DNA of 64,000 bases from Desulfurococcales archaeon (GCA_027022365.1 JALVYU010000026.1:384001-448000); one strand, 5' to 3'. Shown: positions 1,360-44,107, numbered from the stretch's first letter. Program-made: numbers and translations. Notes: a model not told the origin generated them from the sequence alone.

Positions 1360-1373
1360 AACAAATAGTTTCG
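1360..1373 (+). promoter_or_regulatory. Candidate DNA-damage-response element upstream of pilus operon
   Basis: AACAAATAGTTTCG, identical to the minus-strand 27514-27527 copy upstream of the TFB3-like gene; contains ANTTTC. Confidence 0.55.
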
Positions 1374-1456
1374 ATTGCCCCAGGCTCTTCCATCAGTATT
1401 TAACCATATAGCCCATTTTCTTACCATAAACACTTCTCTTCTATAACGGTGGGAAC

Positions 1457-1879
1457 ATGAAGGCTATATCCCCGCTCGTCGCAACAGCCATACTTCTCAT
1501 AATAACGATAGCCGGCGGGGTACTCCTATACAACTACATGATGAACACCCTATCAGCACCCCAAGAGTACGCCAATATCGCTGTAACCTCGGCCAAGATA
1601 TACCAAGTCAACACCACGACCGCGGTGCTAAACATACAAGTAGTCAACATGGGGACACGCACGGCAACAATAAATAGTATAACAATAATCCCGGGGAACT
1701 ACACATTCAGCCTCAGCAATACATTAGTAAAACCCGGTACATCGAAGAACATAAACATAGTCATCGATAACGCAACGGTTGTATCATCGCTTCTTACAGG
1801 CAACCACCTCGTCATAGTGAATTATAATAATGGAGTACAGACTAAGCCGGTCCAGATCGAAGAGGCGAGTACAACTTAA
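1457..1879 (+). CDS. Archaeal type IV pilin (class III signal peptide)
   Basis: MKA|ISPLVATAILLIITIAGG prepilin cleavage motif plus hydrophobic helix; many N-x-S/T sequons. Confidence 0.9.
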   Translation: MKAISPLVATAILLIITIAGGVLLYNYMMNTLSAPQEYANIAVTSAKIYQVNTTTAVLNIQVVNMGTRTATINSITIIPGNYTFSLSNTLVKPGTSKNINIVIDNATVVSSLLTGNHLVIVNYNNGVQTKPVQIEEASTT

Positions 1880-1911
1880 TAAGCAAGATTAATACGGGGT
1901 GTCTTAATCCA

Positions 1912-3447
1912 GTGAGATTTTTTAAATCAATAAACTCAATAAGACTCAATAGGATCTTTAAATCCTCGTTCTCCTCATTCGACATAGACAACGCTGTAGA
2001 GCTTATCAAACTAGTAGTGGAAGACACTAGACTAGCAGAAAAACACAGCCTTAACACAATAGAAGAATACACAATTGACGATATAATTACAGTTCGCATA
2101 ATAAAGAATAGGAACAAACTGGAATACGTGATAACCGAGCCCGCCCTAGAAGAAGATGTTATAGAAGCTATAGCTAGACTCTACTTAGAAAACCCACGTT
2201 GTAAAGATATAGCTTGTATTGAAGACACTATAAGAAGTCTTTCGGATCAATACATCGAGCGGATCTATACGGAAAAACCCCTCGAAGTTATCTATAATTA
2301 TTTCAAACTATCAAGCGGTTATGGCCCGCTATACCCGCTAACCCGTGACCCCCACATAGAGGAGATAGCGGCGAGTAGCGAAGACAGATACGTAAGCATA
2401 ATTCATAGGAAGTACAGCTGGTACGGCTGGATGTCCACAAACATAACAATAACGCAAAAACTCATGGATAGACTCGTTCTAAGCCTAGCAAGGATCATCG
2501 GACGTCACCTAAGCATAGCACAACCAATAGCCGAGGGATTAACGCCCGAAGGCCTTAGACTAGCACTCACATTTGGCCACGAAGTCTCACGTAAAGGCAG
2601 TAGCTTCGTCATTAGGAAAAAACCATCACAACCAATAACTATAACCAAGCTAATCGATCAAGAAGTCATATTAGCTGAGCTAGCAGCATATGCTTGGCTT
2701 GTACTGGAGCTCAAGGGTTCAATACTAATAGTAGGCGGTATGAGCACTGGTAAAACCACGTTACTCCAAGCATTACTAACACTCATTCCACCAACAAGGA
2801 GAGTTGTGACAATAGAGGATACTCCAGAAATAACCGGGACAACGGGTCTATGGGATCCACTCGTTGAAAGAGTAAGCACCATCGGAGACAAACTCAGTAT
2901 CAACATGTATGATCTACTAAAATTCAGCCTTAGACGGAGGGCAGACTACATAGTTGTAGGAGAAGTACGAGGGAGAGAGGCAAGACTCTTAGTGCAGGCA
3001 TCACGTTTAGGGCACGGCGTTCTCGCGACAATGCACGCAGACACGGCACAGTCAGTTATAGAAAGACTGACCGCACCACCCATATCTATACCAAAGAATC
3101 TACTGAGAAGTATTTGGTCCATATTCGTTATGGATGCAACCAACGGCCGTAGACATGTTAGAGAGATCTTTGAAATAGATCATAGGACCAGAGCACATAG
3201 AATCGCGGGGTTAAATGAAGATATCGAGCCATGTGTGAAGACAATAGCGGAAAACACTATACGGTTAAAAGAAATTCTGGATGAAGATACTATAATATCA
3301 GAGCTCGCGTCGAGGACAGCTTTCCTACAAATGCTTGTTAACAAAGGGGTTTTCGACATCTATTCCTTAGGCGAAAAACTCATTGAATACTATAGCTTGG
3401 AGGAGGAAGAATATGAAGGCCCGGGCATTTTTGAGGAAAATAATTAA
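1912..3447 (+). CDS. Type IV pilus / type II secretion assembly ATPase (VirB11/FlaI-like)
   Basis: Walker A GGMSTGKTT, TIEDTPE Asp box, YIVVGEVRG Walker B, GHGVLATMHA His box. Confidence 0.92.
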   Translation: MRFFKSINSIRLNRIFKSSFSSFDIDNAVELIKLVVEDTRLAEKHSLNTIEEYTIDDIITVRIIKNRNKLEYVITEPALEEDVIEAIARLYLENPRCKDIACIEDTIRSLSDQYIERIYTEKPLEVIYNYFKLSSGYGPLYPLTRDPHIEEIAASSEDRYVSIIHRKYSWYGWMSTNITITQKLMDRLVLSLARIIGRHLSIAQPIAEGLTPEGLRLALTFGHEVSRKGSSFVIRKKPSQPITITKLIDQEVILAELAAYAWLVLELKGSILIVGGMSTGKTTLLQALLTLIPPTRRVVTIEDTPEITGTTGLWDPLVERVSTIGDKLSINMYDLLKFSLRRRADYIVVGEVRGREARLLVQASRLGHGVLATMHADTAQSVIERLTAPPISIPKNLLRSIWSIFVMDATNGRRHVREIFEIDHRTRAHRIAGLNEDIEPCVKTIAENTIRLKEILDEDTIISELASRTAFLQMLVNKGVFDIYSLGEKLIEYYSLEEEEYEGPGIFEENN

Positions 3448-4927
3448 TCCAAAAGTACTCGTATCGATTATCATATTTTCACTTTTATTAGATATCCTAG
3501 CACTTACAACCCACTGCTACTACTTATTGCTCAGCGTATCAATACCTATAACTCCGCCTCTCATTATTATAGCCAAAAGACTATCATTCAAGAAAAAGCT
3601 TGAAGAAGAATTCCCCGATTTCCTTGCCCTAAACCTTACGATGGAAGCAAACGGGTTAAGACTAGATAATGTATTCGATGAAGCTCTGAAGCATAAATTG
3701 AAATTACCACCCGCTTACGAGATCATAGCAAGAATATACAGTCTTATCAAGACGTTAAATCCAGACCCATATACAGGGCTTAGATATCTAGCCAAACTAG
3801 TGCCTAGTGAGAGAATATCTAGGTTCTTCAGAGGCTACACAGAGATACTCGTGACTACGAATGATACTCTAACATATGTTGAATCGAAACTTGATGAAGA
3901 ACTGGCTAGTCTGGAGCAACGAATAAGCCATAGTCTATCAGGCCTCGACACGCTCTATGAGGGATTATTAATTATCTTAATGTCGATAATAACGTTCATG
4001 CTTATACCCGTAGCTTATGTCCCAAAAGAACTTATAGCATTCATTGTTTCAATTACAGGTATCTCGGCATATATGCTCTCTTCTTCACTTACATCTCGGA
4101 CTTACAGATACGAGACTCAAGTGTCCCAATTAATCTCACTAATACTATTAACAATAACACCATTCATAATGCTCAATATAGGGCTTAGGGGGATGATCAT
4201 ATATACGTTCCTTATAATTTTCTTAACACTTATATTCAGGAAGATCGAAAAATCATCGGAAGATATAGAGAACAATGTTATTAGTCTCCTTGACGACCTT
4301 TACAGCGAGGCTAAACAAGGCATACCCATTGACCACGCCTTAATGAAGAAAGAGAACCTGATACATCCACTCAAGAAAATTCGGGATCTCCTAAGACTGG
4401 GCATCCCTATACCATCTATACTTGAGAAGCTAAGAATGCCGCCTTTCTCAAAGAAATTATTGGGTCTAGCTTTTTCCCCTCTAGAGTATAGTAGGTATCA
4501 TGAAAAACATTTAGGATATACTTTAAAGATCATGGATTATATTGTGAGGCTCCGACGCATACTTTCTGAAAGGGGAAAGATGTATTTCTTCTATGCATTA
4601 ACGCTACCCATCATAACTATTGTGATGATCAAAGGTATGACCACTATACAATCTAGTCTAAACAGTATGTTTGATCCCGAGCTAGCAGTGGGGCTTACAT
4701 ACTCGATATCATTAATAGCAGGGATAATCGCTTCAAAAATATCTAGTGGTAAGAGCCTGTATAGCGTTCTAACCCCTTTATTATTAGTAGTAACACTAGC
4801 CTCATTTTATCTAGCAAACATGATCATCCCTAACAACAGCGCTATAACGCCACATCCTTTACATCAGCCTTTGACAACACCTATAGGCCTCATCTTCACT
4901 ACCAGCCTAGCAATACCAACACGATGA
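3413..4927 (+). CDS. TadC/FlaJ-like pilus membrane platform protein
   Basis: Multi-TM protein with a LEEEFPDFL T2SSF-like segment, directly after the ATPase; ATG at 3413 follows GGAGG. Confidence 0.75.
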   Translation: MKARAFLRKIINPKVLVSIIIFSLLLDILALTTHCYYLLLSVSIPITPPLIIIAKRLSFKKKLEEEFPDFLALNLTMEANGLRLDNVFDEALKHKLKLPPAYEIIARIYSLIKTLNPDPYTGLRYLAKLVPSERISRFFRGYTEILVTTNDTLTYVESKLDEELASLEQRISHSLSGLDTLYEGLLIILMSIITFMLIPVAYVPKELIAFIVSITGISAYMLSSSLTSRTYRYETQVSQLISLILLTITPFIMLNIGLRGMIIYTFLIIFLTLIFRKIEKSSEDIENNVISLLDDLYSEAKQGIPIDHALMKKENLIHPLKKIRDLLRLGIPIPSILEKLRMPPFSKKLLGLAFSPLEYSRYHEKHLGYTLKIMDYIVRLRRILSERGKMYFFYALTLPIITIVMIKGMTTIQSSLNSMFDPELAVGLTYSISLIAGIIASKISSGKSLYSVLTPLLLVVTLASFYLANMIIPNNSAITPHPLHQPLTTPIGLIFTTSLAIPTR

Positions 4928-26825: not shown

Positions 26826-27434
26826 TTATGGCGGGTTAATATTTGCTGGTTTTATCCTCTCATGTATTTTCTTGGCGAGTCTTAGGAGGCGCTTATAGCT
26901 TGTGGGGCTTATATTGAATATCTCGGTAACTCTGTGCTCGAGGGGAGGTCTTCTCTTCTTATCTAGGAATGAGAGTATATATGCTAGTGCATACTTGCTT
27001 CTCTCGGTTCTAGCGAGGGCTGCAGGGTAGACTCTCTCTATTAGCTCTATATAGTGTTGTAGCTCACGGCGAATTCCTAGCTCCTCGATGTTTTTCTCGG
27101 CATTGATAGTAGCGTCCGACTTTATTGTTTTCACGAGCTTCCCGCTGTGGAGATATTTATCGTAGTCTATATGTAGCCATGGTCTGCCTGTGACGTATTT
27201 TTGCGCTGTATTATACCTCCTTATATGTATATAGTATTGCCTGTGTTGTCTCCTGTGTTTGGGATTTTCGAGCTTCTTTGCCTGGCATTGATATATGGTG
27301 TCCTCCCTCCTGTACGGCGGGCTATAATCATATATTGTATCAATAACTGTTCCGCAGGAACTACAGGTTATTTCTCCCTTCTCGTAGTCCCAGATCAGAA
27401 TGCCTCCGCATATGGGGCACGTGTTTTCTCTCAT
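26826..27434 (-). CDS. Truncated TFB-like zinc-ribbon protein (TFB3-like)
   Basis: CPICGG-LIWDYEKGEITCSSCGTVID TFIIB Zn ribbon; 202 aa, lacking the two full cyclin repeats. Confidence 0.65.
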   Translation of the reverse strand: MRENTCPICGGILIWDYEKGEITCSSCGTVIDTIYDYSPPYRREDTIYQCQAKKLENPKHRRQHRQYYIHIRRYNTAQKYVTGRPWLHIDYDKYLHSGKLVKTIKSDATINAEKNIEELGIRRELQHYIELIERVYPAALARTERSKYALAYILSFLDKKRRPPLEHRVTEIFNISPTSYKRLLRLAKKIHERIKPANINPP

Positions 27435-27513
27435 CTACTGACACCGTTACATTGGTAGGGCTTCTCTGTTATTTCTCGAGAACAGTGTATGGTAGCGCGC
27501 TCTGAGGGTGTAA

Positions 27514-27527
27514 CGAAACTATTTGTT
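27514..27527 (-). promoter_or_regulatory. Candidate DNA-damage-response element upstream of TFB3-like gene
   Basis: Minus strand AACAAATAGTTTCG, identical to 1360-1373. Confidence 0.55.
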
Positions 27528-41654: not shown

Positions 41655-42107
41655 TTACTTTCCCTTTAGAACCTTCTTTCTTTCCTCCATATATTTCTGG
41701 AAGAACTCATAGATTGTCTGTGCTAATGGGCCTGTGCCTTCCACGCCTTTCTCTGTCACCTTGTAGCGGCTCTGGATAATCACAGCTCTAGCTTCAGGTA
41801 TTATCTTGATTAAATGCTCAGGTATACGCATGTTTCTCATGATGAACTCCTTAAAGTCTTCGGGCTCGAATAATGGTATTTCTGTTGTCAGTATCTCCGA
41901 GACTCTTTCTCCCTTGATAAATACTTTAGGATACGTATTACCATTGTTATCAACAGCGTTTTCCAACAATAGGTTCAGACTCGGATGATCGAAACCAACT
42001 AGTTTTCCCTCGTAATATCGTCCATCAGCAAGAATAACCTTGATCTTCTTGTCAACTAGGCCGGCGAGCTCAGCCGCTAATCGTCTGGAAGCATCGATTA
42101 TGCCCAT
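41655..42107 (-). CDS. Sm-like archaeal protein with C-terminal domain (SmAP3)
   Basis: YEGKLVGFDHPSLNLLLENA Sm motif plus an extra C-terminal domain. Confidence 0.85.
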   Translation of the reverse strand: MGIIDASRRLAAELAGLVDKKIKVILADGRYYEGKLVGFDHPSLNLLLENAVDNNGNTYPKVFIKGERVSEILTTEIPLFEPEDFKEFIMRNMRIPEHLIKIIPEARAVIIQSRYKVTEKGVEGTGPLAQTIYEFFQKYMEERKKVLKGK

Positions 42108-42196
42108 ATCGTATCACCTTTAGGGAAAACTAATATCCGAGTAGGGATATATTGAAATTGCGCTTATAATGATATGCCCTACTCGGGGGTTACAAG

Positions 42197-42547
42197 ATGC
42201 CAATATACAAGTGTAGGATTGATAGTATTGAGCCGCTCAGGTTGCCCGATGTTTATAGGGCTAAGCTTAGCTGTGATAATGTATCAATGGAAGTAGAGCT
42301 TCATGAAAAGATAATGAAGTTAAAACAAGGGACGGATGTTGAGGTATATATTGATAAGAGTAAGGATAAGTGTCTGCAACATGATTTCTGTGGCCGAGCA
42401 CATGTAGTTTCGATCAATAAATTCGAAGACTATTATCGTGTGGTATTATCTATTGCGGGGCTTCTTGTTGTTATCAAGCTTCGTGAACAGCCTAGGGCAC
42501 CGTTTAAAGTTATGAATGAAGTATATGTTGGTATTAGATATGTTTAA
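42197..42547 (+). CDS. rpo8: RNA polymerase subunit Rpo8 (RpoG)
   Basis: OB-fold-like, DFCGRAHVV, LSIAGLLV, VYVGI; size and context fit crenarchaeal Rpo8. Confidence 0.8.
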   Translation: MPIYKCRIDSIEPLRLPDVYRAKLSCDNVSMEVELHEKIMKLKQGTDVEVYIDKSKDKCLQHDFCGRAHVVSINKFEDYYRVVLSIAGLLVVIKLREQPRAPFKVMNEVYVGIRYV

Positions 42548-42656
42548 GTTATGATATAATACCTTTCTTAGCAAAAATACTCCATTCTTGATCATGTATT
42601 TAAGCATATGTAAGATAATCTTCCTAAATAAGGGAGCCAATTATAGAGGGGCGATA

Positions 42657-42992
42657 TTGAAACGTGAGACTACGATATTGGTCGAACTGCTTAGGTACTA
42701 TGATTCCACCGATGACAAGGTATTCGAAGAGCTTCTCGAGCTACAGCGGTATATAGCTCTCCGGACAGCCAAAAACAAGGATTTAGAATACTATATTATA
42801 TCTTATAGTAAGAACAAGGGGAAAGATAAGGGCGTTGTAATAGTAATTCGAGGAATACCTGAAATGACATATAGAGAATCAGAACTACTTGTAGACTATA
42901 TCAAGAGCAGATTCACCACGATCACTTGTAACCGCCTAAATCGTGGCAAGACAGTAAAGCTAGAACTTCCTGTGCCGCAAAATTTTTTCTAA
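42657..42992 (+). CDS. Hypothetical protein; probable N-terminal part of a frameshift fusion with the downstream ATPase
   Basis: TTG start after GGGGCG; ends ...PVPQNFF* on A AAT TTT TTC TAA. Confidence 0.65.
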   Translation: MKRETTILVELLRYYDSTDDKVFEELLELQRYIALRTAKNKDLEYYIISYSKNKGKDKGVVIVIRGIPEMTYRESELLVDYIKSRFTTITCNRLNRGKTVKLELPVPQNFF

Positions 42993-43033
42993 GGCTCTTT
43001 AGGAGAAGATATGATCAAATAAAAGGATTTGTT

Positions 43034-44107
43034 GTGGTCAATTTTATGCAGGCGAGTATTAGATATCCTGTACAACTTATTGGTAGAAGTATTGAGAACC
43101 GCATGGGGAATAATGGAATAGTTCTAGGGAAGGCCCTCGGCTGTAAGCAGGAGCCACTTATTGTAATGCCAGTTAGTGTGCTGTATAGACATATTCTCGT
43201 GGTGGGGGCAACTGGTTCTGGCAAGACTAGGACAACGGCATTCATTATTAACTCATTACAACACGCCTATCCAGACAAGTATAGGGTGATAATCCTAGAT
43301 TGGCATGGTGAGTACAGTTCTCTTTTGAAAAAATATATTTATATAAATCCTTATAATGCCCCCATCAATATCGTTGATACTAAAACATTATCATGGATAG
43401 AAACATTATATGATGTACTGGGGCTAACAGATCCTCAAGCGTATGTTCTCCAGAAAATAATCGAGAAATCGAATATTGCTCCAAGTATTGATATCAAGAA
43501 ACTATATAGGCTAATCGAAGAAATGAATACCGAGAATGCTAAATGGATGAAAGAAGTAAAATACGCATTACTAAGAAGACTCGCCCCACTGGCCTACGGT
43601 GATAATTATAAACTCTTTACAGGGACCAAAGACTTTCTCGAGCTGTTCAAAAATAGGACTACCTATGTTATAGATCTAAGTATGATACGGGAGACAAGGA
43701 TTAAGAGAATATACGCTACATTCATTATTCGTTATGTTTTCGACTATGCTTTAAGGAATAGTATGCGCGACACTGTACTTGTGATCGAAGAAGCACATAA
43801 TCTTATGAAGAAGAGTGATTCTCTAGAAATAATTACACGTATGTTATCAGAGATACGTAAGTTTGGTGTTGGTGTTATAATAGTTTCTCAGTCCCCCAGC
43901 GGACTTAGTGATGATATTATGAAGAACACTGCTTCCAAGATAATTCACTCAATAAAATCCTCCGTAGACTTAGAAACTATATCTAGATCGCTCGTATTGG
44001 ATAAAGAACTCATTAGCATAATTCCTTATCTCGAACCGGGAGAAGCAGTCGCGGCACTACCTAATTATAAAAAGCCATTATTGGTTAAAATAGGGGGGTT
44101 TACCTGA
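43034..44107 (+). CDS. HerA/VirB4-like P-loop ATPase (DUF87), possibly CedD-like
   Basis: RHILVVGATGSGKT, ILDWHGEY, VIEEAHN, SEIRKFGVGVIIVSQSP; frame is open upstream to 42932. Confidence 0.88.
   Translation: MVNFMQASIRYPVQLIGRSIENRMGNNGIVLGKALGCKQEPLIVMPVSVLYRHILVVGATGSGKTRTTAFIINSLQHAYPDKYRVIILDWHGEYSSLLKKYIYINPYNAPINIVDTKTLSWIETLYDVLGLTDPQAYVLQKIIEKSNIAPSIDIKKLYRLIEEMNTENAKWMKEVKYALLRRLAPLAYGDNYKLFTGTKDFLELFKNRTTYVIDLSMIRETRIKRIYATFIIRYVFDYALRNSMRDTVLVIEEAHNLMKKSDSLEIITRMLSEIRKFGVGVIIVSQSPSGLSDDIMKNTASKIIHSIKSSVDLETISRSLVLDKELISIIPYLEPGEAVAALPNYKKPLLVKIGGFT

Follow-up and report, generated by a model that had tools for sequence, protein, structure and literature searches.

A DDRE-like promoter element shared by a non-Ups type IV pilus operon and a tfb3 orthologue marks a probable DNA-damage regulon in a Desulfurococcales archaeon

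In Saccharolobus and Sulfolobus, induction of ups, ced, tfb3 and dpo2 requires the DNA-damage-responsive element (DDRE), which is bound by the Orc1/Cdc6 paralogue Orc1-2; this ANTTTC-containing, Orc1-2-bound element of Sulfolobales is described by Le et al. 2017 (PMC5817253) and Sun et al. 2018 (PMC6061795). Does such an element control a pilus outside Sulfolobales? The question is raised by a 64,000-nucleotide stretch of DNA from an uncultured Desulfurococcales archaeon (GCA_027022365.1 JALVYU010000026.1:384001-448000; hereafter the window), in which a sequence-only reading had noticed an identical 14-bp element upstream of a three-gene pilus operon and of a gene for a TFB3-like protein. The window corresponds to G000:C26:384001-448000 in assembly G000, which comprises 1,742,253 bases in 44 contigs. 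Based on comparisons with related genomes, we consider it probable that the operon encodes a DDRE-controlled, non-Ups type IV pilus inside a conserved DNA-damage regulon. A role of this pilus in aggregation and DNA exchange is a reading that we hold with less confidence.

The shared element and its conservation

The 14-mer AACAAATAGTTTCG lies at 1360-1373 on the plus strand and at 27514-27527 on the minus strand of the window, with zero mismatches at both sites. From its end, 84 nt separate it from the pilin ATG (1457) and 80 nt from the TFB3-like ATG (27434), and its orientation relative to the two genes is the same; the positions, orientation and spacing reported by the sequence-only reading were all reproduced. 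Across both strands of the 1,742,253-base assembly there are 2 exact matches, 2 with at most one mismatch, and 19 with at most two. Within the window, three matches with at most two mismatches compare with 0.42 expected, and three were reached in 1 of 100 shuffles. Taken alone, an identical 14-mer common to two intergenic regions is weak evidence. Since identity of the 14-mer was not compelling by itself, we examined its conservation in relatives, which provides the decisive evidence.

We compared 24 other genomes of the same family (f1), within a collection of 151 genomes of the order. Full-length orthologues of the TFB3-like gene are present in 23 of the 24, with weaker ones in other families of the order, and orthologues of the pilus ATPase (E below 1e-100) in 21 of the 24. 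Upstream of tfb3, 22 of 23 family loci, the window's own included, contain the 10-bp core of the element, AATAGTTTCG, with at most two mismatches at -72 to -121 relative to the ATG; G013 was excluded from this promoter set, its sole match (2.6e-5) being a Zn-ribbon match in an open reading frame (ORF) of ~300 aa. Recognisable core variants also occur at -89 to -97 in 7 tfb3 loci of other families. Among the pilin loci with a placeable start, 16 of 20 carry the core (at most two mismatches) at -91 to -101 from the pilin ATG. In ~20 genera with otherwise diverged flanks, the core and a downstream C-rich stretch recur ~90 nt before the start codons of the two genes. Judged by this pattern, the shared motif is not a chance match. 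Rare in the genome (two exact copies) and kept before orthologues of both genes across the family, the element held up on two of the counts on which, by the sequence-only reading, it could have been refuted.

The comparison also changes what the element is. The leading AACA of the 14-mer is not conserved, and tfb3 promoters of same-genus relatives read AACG. The conserved unit instead consists of the 10-bp core plus ~10 downstream bases (consensus ccnaaCCCtC); its layout in the family is AATAGTTTCG, ~5 variable bases, then CCCtC. Of the 14-mer originally taken as the unit, the 10-bp core stands and the leading AACA does not, and the conserved unit runs ~10 bases further downstream. In this 20-nt form, the window sites read AATAGTTTCGATTGCCCCAG and AATAGTTTCGTTACACCCTC, both of which contain ANTTTC. 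The two promoters contain the following features:

1364 to 1383, plus strand: DDRE-like site of the pilin operon; core AATAGTTTCG exact at 1364-1373; 15.1 bits with the family matrix
1397 to 1403, plus strand: TATA-box-like TATTTAA, putative core promoter read from the sequence, 24 nt after the AGTTTC hexamer
27504 to 27523, minus strand: DDRE-like site of the TFB3-like gene; core AATAGTTTCG at 27523-27514; 23.2 bits, the genome's second-best match
27485 to 27490, minus strand: conserved ATACAC box, putative weak TATA, at the same position as the TATA box of pilin promoters

In orthologous pilin promoters an A/T-rich box (TATATAG, TTTATAA, ATATATAA, TATTTAA etc.) follows the 10-bp core by 22-26 nt, and at the tfb3 loci of several genera (L007, L008, L010, L011, L014, L021) CATACA(C/G) recurs ~30 nt after the core.

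The family matrix of 20 nt was built from 33 promoters (51 site instances, minus 11 near-duplicates or misplaced sites and 7 from outside the family), which yield the consensus AATAGTTTCGccnaaCCCtC. As a cross-check free of circularity, a separate matrix was made from 19 tfb3 promoters only. With this matrix, the best match of the whole ~4.5-kb pilin locus falls at -85 to -105, with at least 10 bits, in 15 of 20 loci, and the pilin sites of sister species score 18-20 bits. In L047 and L048, the matrix places the pilin site at -60 and -90.

A predicted regulon and its candidate regulator

The core AATAGTTTCG equals the first 10 bases of AATAGTTTCRGWDTACTCWS, the S. islandicus consensus that MEME derived from 21 promoters induced by 4-nitroquinoline 1-oxide (NQO) and that itself contains ANTTTC. 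According to Sun et al. 2018 (PMC6061795), Orc1-2 footprints on that element, and mutation of ANTTTC abolishes induction of upsA, upsE, tfb3 and cedA1. The element of this family resembles the DDRE in several respects: the two share the 10-bp core AATAGTTTCR and have similar 3' halves (A-C-x-C), both are non-palindromic in orientation, the site precedes a putative TATA-like box in all promoter sets, and tfb3, ced, family-B polymerase and pilus genes carry it. As a positive control, the family matrix finds matches just upstream of true upsA in 10 of 12 loci of the Sulfolobaceae-like family f13. Unlike the published DDRE, which lies 23-55 nt from the ATG, the element here is ~88-104 nt away, a greater distance that we attribute to leaders with GGTG in these genes. 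Altogether, these comparisons support the view that the motif is a local form of the crenarchaeal DDRE.

Applied to the whole assembly, the 20-nt matrix gives 204 matches of at least 9 bits. We defined a promoter zone as -40 to -130, co-oriented with the gene (4.8% of positions), and used 30 column-permuted matrices as a control. At 15 bits or more there are 18 matches, 8 of them in promoter zones and two of these 8 being training sites; permuted matrices average 7.1 matches, with 0.4 in the zone on average and 2 at most. At 17 bits or more there are 12 matches with 6 in the zone, and the permuted matrices average 2.5, with a mean of 0.03 and a maximum of 1 in the zone. Besides the two window sites, the predicted regulon includes the following:

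C3:25567, 25.8 bits: operon encoding proteins of 216 aa and 85 aa and a 649-aa family-B polymerase
C26:351622, 23.0 bits: cedA1 (120 bits, cut-off 100), a cedA-like gene (128 bits), then a gene for a 564-aa CedB-like ATPase
C26:584302, 21.7 bits: aCcr1-family ribbon-helix-helix regulator (61.2 bits, cut-off 60)
C26:460850 (L064), 20.5 bits: 91-aa winged-helix protein, a candidate regulon member
C26:317854, 17.2 bits: two pilin-like genes, 117 and 649 aa

Several of these sites are conserved. At the ced operon, the best match lies at -324 to -382 from cedA in all 18 family loci with enough flank and reaches at least 13 bits in 15 of them, compared with 2 of 11 ced loci of other families; the CedA2 model had no match in G000. 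The polymerase operon carries the element at -59 to -71, with at least 15 bits, in 11 of 14 loci. Among the polymerases of S. islandicus, NQO induces the family-B enzyme Dpo2 alone, in an Orc1-2-dependent manner; the family-B polymerase model scores 252 bits on the 649-aa protein here, below its cut-off of 516, and assignment to Dpo2 is tentative. The second pilin pair keeps the element in all 11 loci, which represent 7 genera. Like this pair, the two smaller genes of the polymerase operon (216 and 85 aa) match no Pfam or NCBIfam model.

The element thus turned up in the genome and its relatives before tfb3, the pilus operon and the cedA1-cedA-cedB-like operon, where a scan had been expected to find it. 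This strengthens the earlier proposal that an ANTTTC-type element marks a pilus and DNA-exchange regulon: its core is that of the published element, it is kept family-wide, and it also precedes the polymerase operon and the second pilin pair.

The aCcr1-family regulator is 60 aa long (C26:584302-584571, L063), with the element 87 nt upstream, which hints that cell-division control may be tied to the same circuit. A 17.6-bit match at C26:377489 (L066) precedes the gene of a 144-aa protein of no known family, a candidate regulon member; the 614-aa gene after it has an N-terminus that, by eye, resembles the threonyl-tRNA-synthetase type.

G000 contains two Orc1/Cdc6 genes. The first is Orc1-1-type (PDB match 2qby_A, 2e-127). 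The second, at ~62.3-63.6 kb of contig C7, matches 1fnn (1e-60) and Aeropyrum pernix ORC2, 1w5s (3e-45), a structure called an Orc1-2 homologue in PMC12490963. In the C7 protein, the RRxT motif of the winged-helix helix reads RRHT (361-364) and the RxR motif of the wing reads RGR (389-391), a spacing of 27, which is that of S. islandicus Orc1-2 (R353R354/T356 and R381R383); in the Orc1-1-type paralogue the first motif is RRVS and the spacing 21. By these residues and matches, the C7 gene encodes an Orc1-2-type protein. Near the other paralogue, two inverted matrix matches (18.9 and 18.3 bits) flank an A/T-rich stretch at G000:C26:524878-525030 (L065), ~2 kb from the Orc1-1-type gene (C26:526948-528024). 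This stretch looks like a replication origin with boxes of the origin-recognition-box (ORB) type that resemble the damage element.

The second gene downstream of the shared element encodes a truncated TFB:

26826 to 27434, minus strand: TFB3 orthologue, a 202-aa truncated TFB that has a Zn ribbon but lacks the cyclin-fold/HTH core

The only TFIIB domain that Pfam finds is the Zn ribbon PF08271, at 38 bits against a cut-off of 29. A profile of 26 TFB3 orthologues gives its best match to a short ORF in each of 5 f13 genomes; these ORFs are 168-212 aa long, with E between 5e-16 and 3e-12 and coverage reaching position 180 of 201, and ~300-aa TFBs score 2e-6 or worse. ANTTTC-like cores lie at -78 to -88 before the short TFB of the 5 Sulfolobaceae-like genomes. 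On these profile matches, we classify the gene as an orthologue of Sulfolobaceae TFB3.

In L013, L014, L018, L021 and L022, the first or both Cys pairs of the Zn ribbon are replaced (e.g. ...YSYCRGALVWDY...ICTLTGEVVD), and the TFB3 orthologues of these five genera probably bind no zinc; they retain the upstream element. In three genomes of other families, TFB3-like and CedD-like genes adjoin (G030:C10:1370-3525, G040:C1:104856-107021, G036:C5:36254-39503), and in G030 and G040 the neighbours point the same way and the element precedes tfb3.

That TFB3 and Ced occur together beyond Sulfolobales is already known: Feng et al. 2018 (PMC6101594) reports it for 13 genera on the basis of gene co-occurrence, with ups limited to Sulfolobales, and proposes a TFB3/Ced circuit conserved in Crenarchaeota. 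The truncated TFB and ced genes of G000 fit that circuit. Beyond what that paper proposes, a shared cis-element is found here, and the pilus may be placed in the circuit.

A further Ced component had been suspected in a HerA/VirB4-like ATPase at 43 kb:

43034 to 44107, plus strand: CedD-like HerA/VirB4-type ATPase, short form, 357 aa; NCBIfam CedD E 1e-86
43879 to 43898, plus strand: DDRE-like match AATAGTTTCTCAGTCCCCCA, 15.6 bits, inside the CedD-like coding sequence towards its 3' end; no gene in the same orientation starts near it

By homology the protein is CedD-like; as a regulon member the gene is unsupported in this genus, where it has no upstream element. No matrix match of at least 8 bits occurs in the region upstream of it (42100-43034), and at none of the 5 CedD-like loci of this genus does the best upstream match reach 2 bits. 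CedD-like loci of three further genera of the family have matches of 12-16.5 bits ~390-485 nt upstream, and one f12 genome has 17.6 bits at -61. We also rejected assignment as a full-length CedD equivalog with TM and N-terminal domain: the score of 291.7 bits falls below the cut-off of 600, and only profile positions 200-525 of 527 are matched, with the first ~200 missing. CedD-like proteins are mostly 359-407 aa in this family, whereas those of other families have 513-554 aa. Here the gene is preceded, within 42588-44107, by an ORF of 134 aa that has no Pfam or NCBIfam match and may stand for the missing N-terminal part.

The pilus and its relation to Ups

The operon downstream of the first site contains three genes:

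1457 to 1879, plus strand: pilin gene, putative major pilin of 140 aa; N-terminus MKA/ISPLVATAILLIITIAGG, class-III-signal-like
1912 to 3447, plus strand: type IV pilus assembly ATPase of the T2SSE/FlaI superfamily, 511 aa; Pfam T2SSE 96.8 bits
3383 to 4927, plus strand: polytopic membrane platform protein (FlaJ/TadC/UpsF-like), 514 aa; profile-profile match to UpsF

The pilin gene is directly upstream of the ATPase gene in every family locus with enough flank, and the pilin scores 16.5 bits with the NCBIfam archaellin/pilin N-terminal domain (cut-off 20). The platform protein had no match in Pfam or NCBIfam; a profile of 15 family orthologues aligns with an UpsF profile (n=5, the genes after UpsE in Sulfolobaceae-like genomes) over 396 columns, with an hhalign probability of 84.7% and E 6.7e-6. 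By its pilin N-terminus, T2SSE ATPase and platform, this is predicted to be an archaeal type IV pilus locus. The order is pilin-ATPase-platform, with a single pilin, no upsX-like gene and nothing beyond these three genes. At its 3' end the platform gene shares 64 nt with the 3' end of a convergent RtcB-like ORF on the minus strand (4864-4927, from the ORF list and translation), which places the end of the operon there.

Is this an Ups pilus? According to PMC6101594, PMC9905601, PMC11823120 and PMC11868833, ups is limited to Sulfolobales and other crenarchaea are without it. The sequence-only reading had placed our organism outside Sulfolobales and described its operon as a possible functional analogue of ups. 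The first statement is right by NCBI naming, and the closest named relatives are 'Desulfurococcales archaeon' metagenome-assembled genomes; the genome collection that we used, in contrast, unites it with the UpsA-bearing family in one order. The second proved to be the right wording, since the ATPase falls outside the UpsE clade and the operon is therefore no orthologue of ups by the tree and the topology test described below.

We built a quick IQ-TREE phylogeny of 56 ATPases, with 7 rows dropped (three held only partial ORFs, and four were nearly identical to others of the genus) and the UpsE sequences (n=5) labelled by their position beside upsA. The window protein falls in a family clade of 16 rows (support 99), which extends to 19 rows with two f2 sequences and one f8 sequence (support 97). 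BasE and the five UpsE sequences form a cluster of their own (support 99), split from the window clade by a branch with support 95; the window clade is also apart from FlaI and from a 560-600-aa Sulfolobaceae-like group. An approximately unbiased (AU) test rejects a clade joining the 19 rows and UpsE (delta log-likelihood 58.4, p 0.011), a group chosen after the tree was seen. The pilin has a full-length match to the NCBIfam UpsA model (37.1 bits, cut-off 130, E 3e-9). UpsA above the cut-off occurs in family f13 only (13 of 151 genomes); weak matches are generic, present in 133 of 151, and the best one in G000 is not this pilin but lies at C31:72062. The weak full-length match was accordingly dropped as a sign of Ups membership, such matches being found in 133 of 151 genomes. 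By its ATPase phylogeny, then, the pilus is non-Ups, and its ATPase is not an UpsE orthologue.

The parallel with Ups is one of organization. Ups comprises upsX-upsE-upsF-upsA-upsB and the unlinked upsC; here, likewise, an element-preceded operon encodes an ATPase, a platform and a pilin, and a second, unlinked element-bearing pilin locus encodes a very large pilin that parallels UpsC. Unlike Ups, this pilus has an ATPase outside the UpsE clade, a pilin below the UpsA cut-off, the order pilin-ATPase-platform, one pilin and no upsX. The second locus (G000:C26:315521-317873; L067/L172) encodes the 117- and 649-aa proteins, whose pilin-type N-termini are MKG/LSQ... and MKA/LGT.... UpsC is described as a large, unlinked, UV-induced pilin needed for aggregation, and the second locus is possibly its counterpart.

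Of the four pilus-type ATPase loci of G000, this one alone has the element. Counting loci with a matrix match of at least 13 bits, 20 of 22 orthologous loci have one (the two misses lack upstream flank, and many of the 20 are training data). None of the family's 14 paralogous pilus-ATPase loci has such a match, nor do any of the 3 nearest relatives outside the family or the 8 non-Ups pilus loci of f13; among other loci of other families it is 1 of 11.

A possible circuit for damage-induced DNA exchange

Taken together, these parts suggest a mechanism. DNA damage would lead the Orc1-2-type protein encoded on C7 to bind the element and activate weak promoters. The element-bearing units would be tfb3, the pilus operon, the unlinked pilin pair, the cedA1-cedA-cedB-like operon, the polymerase operon and the aCcr1-family regulator. 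Once induced, TFB3 would reinforce transcription of the pilus and ced genes, as in Sulfolobus. The pilus would aggregate cells, with the 649-aa pilin as an UpsC-like accessory, and the Ced apparatus would import DNA for recombinational repair.

The distribution of the genes across the family is suggestive. In G017, an f1 genome of 99% completeness, tfb3, cedA, the orthologue of the pilus ATPase, the CedD-like gene and the polymerase operon's 216-aa gene are all unmatched, and G021 (97% complete) is without the pilus orthologue, cedA and the CedD-like gene and keeps the TFB3-like gene. This apparent co-loss of the pilus and ced sets is an observation rather than a test.

Several results weigh against the regulon and its proposed control. 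The expectation that the element would also precede orc1-2 failed: within 1.5 kb upstream of the C7 Orc1-2-type gene the best match is 5.8 bits, unlike in S. islandicus, where the orc1-2 promoter carries the element. In S. acidocaldarius, ANTTTC lies at -44 to -39 from the transcription start, directly before BRE/TATA; here the gap from the hexamer to the putative TATA-like box is ~24 nt in the pilin and tfb3 promoters and ~16 nt in the ced-type, which places the pilin and tfb3 element ~10-15 nt farther from that box than in S. acidocaldarius. Within its set, the pilin site of the window itself scores lowest, with 15.1 bits in the joint matrix and ~8 bits in the tfb3-only matrix, the latter because its C-rich 3' half (ATTGCCCCAG) is atypical and shifted. 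Ten of the 18 genome matches of at least 15 bits fall outside promoter zones, and the matrix alone is therefore not specific. Related genomes are non-independent samples. Finally, two fragmented assemblies break the association of pilus and ced: G007 has ced and tfb3 with only the pilus orthologue unmatched, and G006 has the pilus with only cedA unmatched.

Among the alternatives, the one that fares best is a damage-regulated but ordinary adhesion or biofilm pilus that does not aggregate cells for Ced exchange, a minority view that we take seriously. A pilus with an ATPase outside the UpsE clade, no upsX-like gene and one pilin in its operon could well be of this kind, the imperfect co-distribution of pilus and ced in G006 and G007 is what it would predict, and A. 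pernix makes Ced pili without Ups (PMC9905601). It would not account as readily for an element at one of four pilus-ATPase loci of G000 and at 0 of 14 paralogue loci of the family, for a very large second pilin under the element that recalls UpsC, or for the joint absence of pilus and ced in G017 and G021.

Alternatively, the element could be a real site, bound by the Orc1-2-type protein or another factor, that responds to the cell cycle, growth phase, surface contact or another stress. Damage induction is, after all, predicted here from sequence; a cell-cycle regulator of the aCcr1 family is among the targets, the spacing of element and TATA differs from Sulfolobus, and the matches flanking the A/T-rich stretch by the Orc1-1-type gene suggest that Orc1-family proteins with other roles may read similar sites. 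Yet the set of tfb3, ced, family-B polymerase and pili repeats the S. islandicus Orc1-2/NQO regulon gene for gene under an identical core, which makes a different signal unlikely.

That the operon is a divergent true Ups, orthologous to upsEFA, in which case Ups would not be restricted to Sulfolobaceae, we regard as quite improbable: the weak full-length UpsA match (E 3e-9), the alignment of the platform with UpsF (84.7%) and the same element upstream of both systems would fit, but the UpsA cut-off is passed only in f13 (13 of 151), with weak matches generic and the best in G000 at C31:72062, UpsE groups with BasE across a branch of 95% support (AU p 0.011, the group named post hoc), and the gene order differs. 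A functionless chance match is next to impossible, for although short A/T-rich words recur between intergenic regions and AACA is not conserved, it is refuted by conservation of the core at a fixed distance before both genes in ~20 genera with diverged flanks, and by the identity of that core to a characterised element.

The regulon reading bears on how crenarchaea with a Ced system come together. The closest comparison is the CedA1 conjugation-like pilus of A. pernix (Beltran et al. 2023, PMC9905601), also from a Desulfurococcales-type organism with Ced and reportedly no Ups. Its filament is CedA1 and no type IV pilus, unlike the operon here, which is predicted from its genes to encode a separate type IV pilus that would work next to Ced. 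Our literature search turned up no paper in which the element, or a pilus linked to damage, is reported beyond Sulfolobales, with supplements such as PMC11823120 Table S1 and the PMC6101594 Figure 7 supplements outside its reach. Sun et al. call it 'very tempting' to ask whether Orc1-2 outside Sulfolobales controls damage-induced expression. This locus offers a defined cis-element, target promoters over ~20 genera, a regulator candidate, and a pilus operon with a second pilin locus as a candidate aggregation device.

The comparison of the two pili indicates that one circuit may have recruited two different pilus lineages. Extending this, we tentatively suggest, as a conceivable rather than a favored history, that damage-induced pilus mating is ancestral to Sulfolobales and Desulfurococcales under one Orc1-2/DDRE circuit, and that its pilus was swapped by non-orthologous displacement: Sulfolobaceae have Ups, and this family has a type IV pilus unrelated to it together with an unlinked giant pilin, both under the shared element. 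Three studies, of which two carry the label hydrothermal vent metagenome, supply the runs that hold most of the DNA (17 DNA-type runs and no RNA run listed), and, if this history is true, the circuit operates in deep-sea vent organisms never exposed to ultraviolet (UV) light. Papers from 2018-2025 confine ups to Sulfolobales and leave the aggregation of other Ced-bearing crenarchaea unexplained; a swapped, DDRE-controlled pilus would, if true, explain how Ced-bearing crenarchaea said to lack Ups gather their cells.

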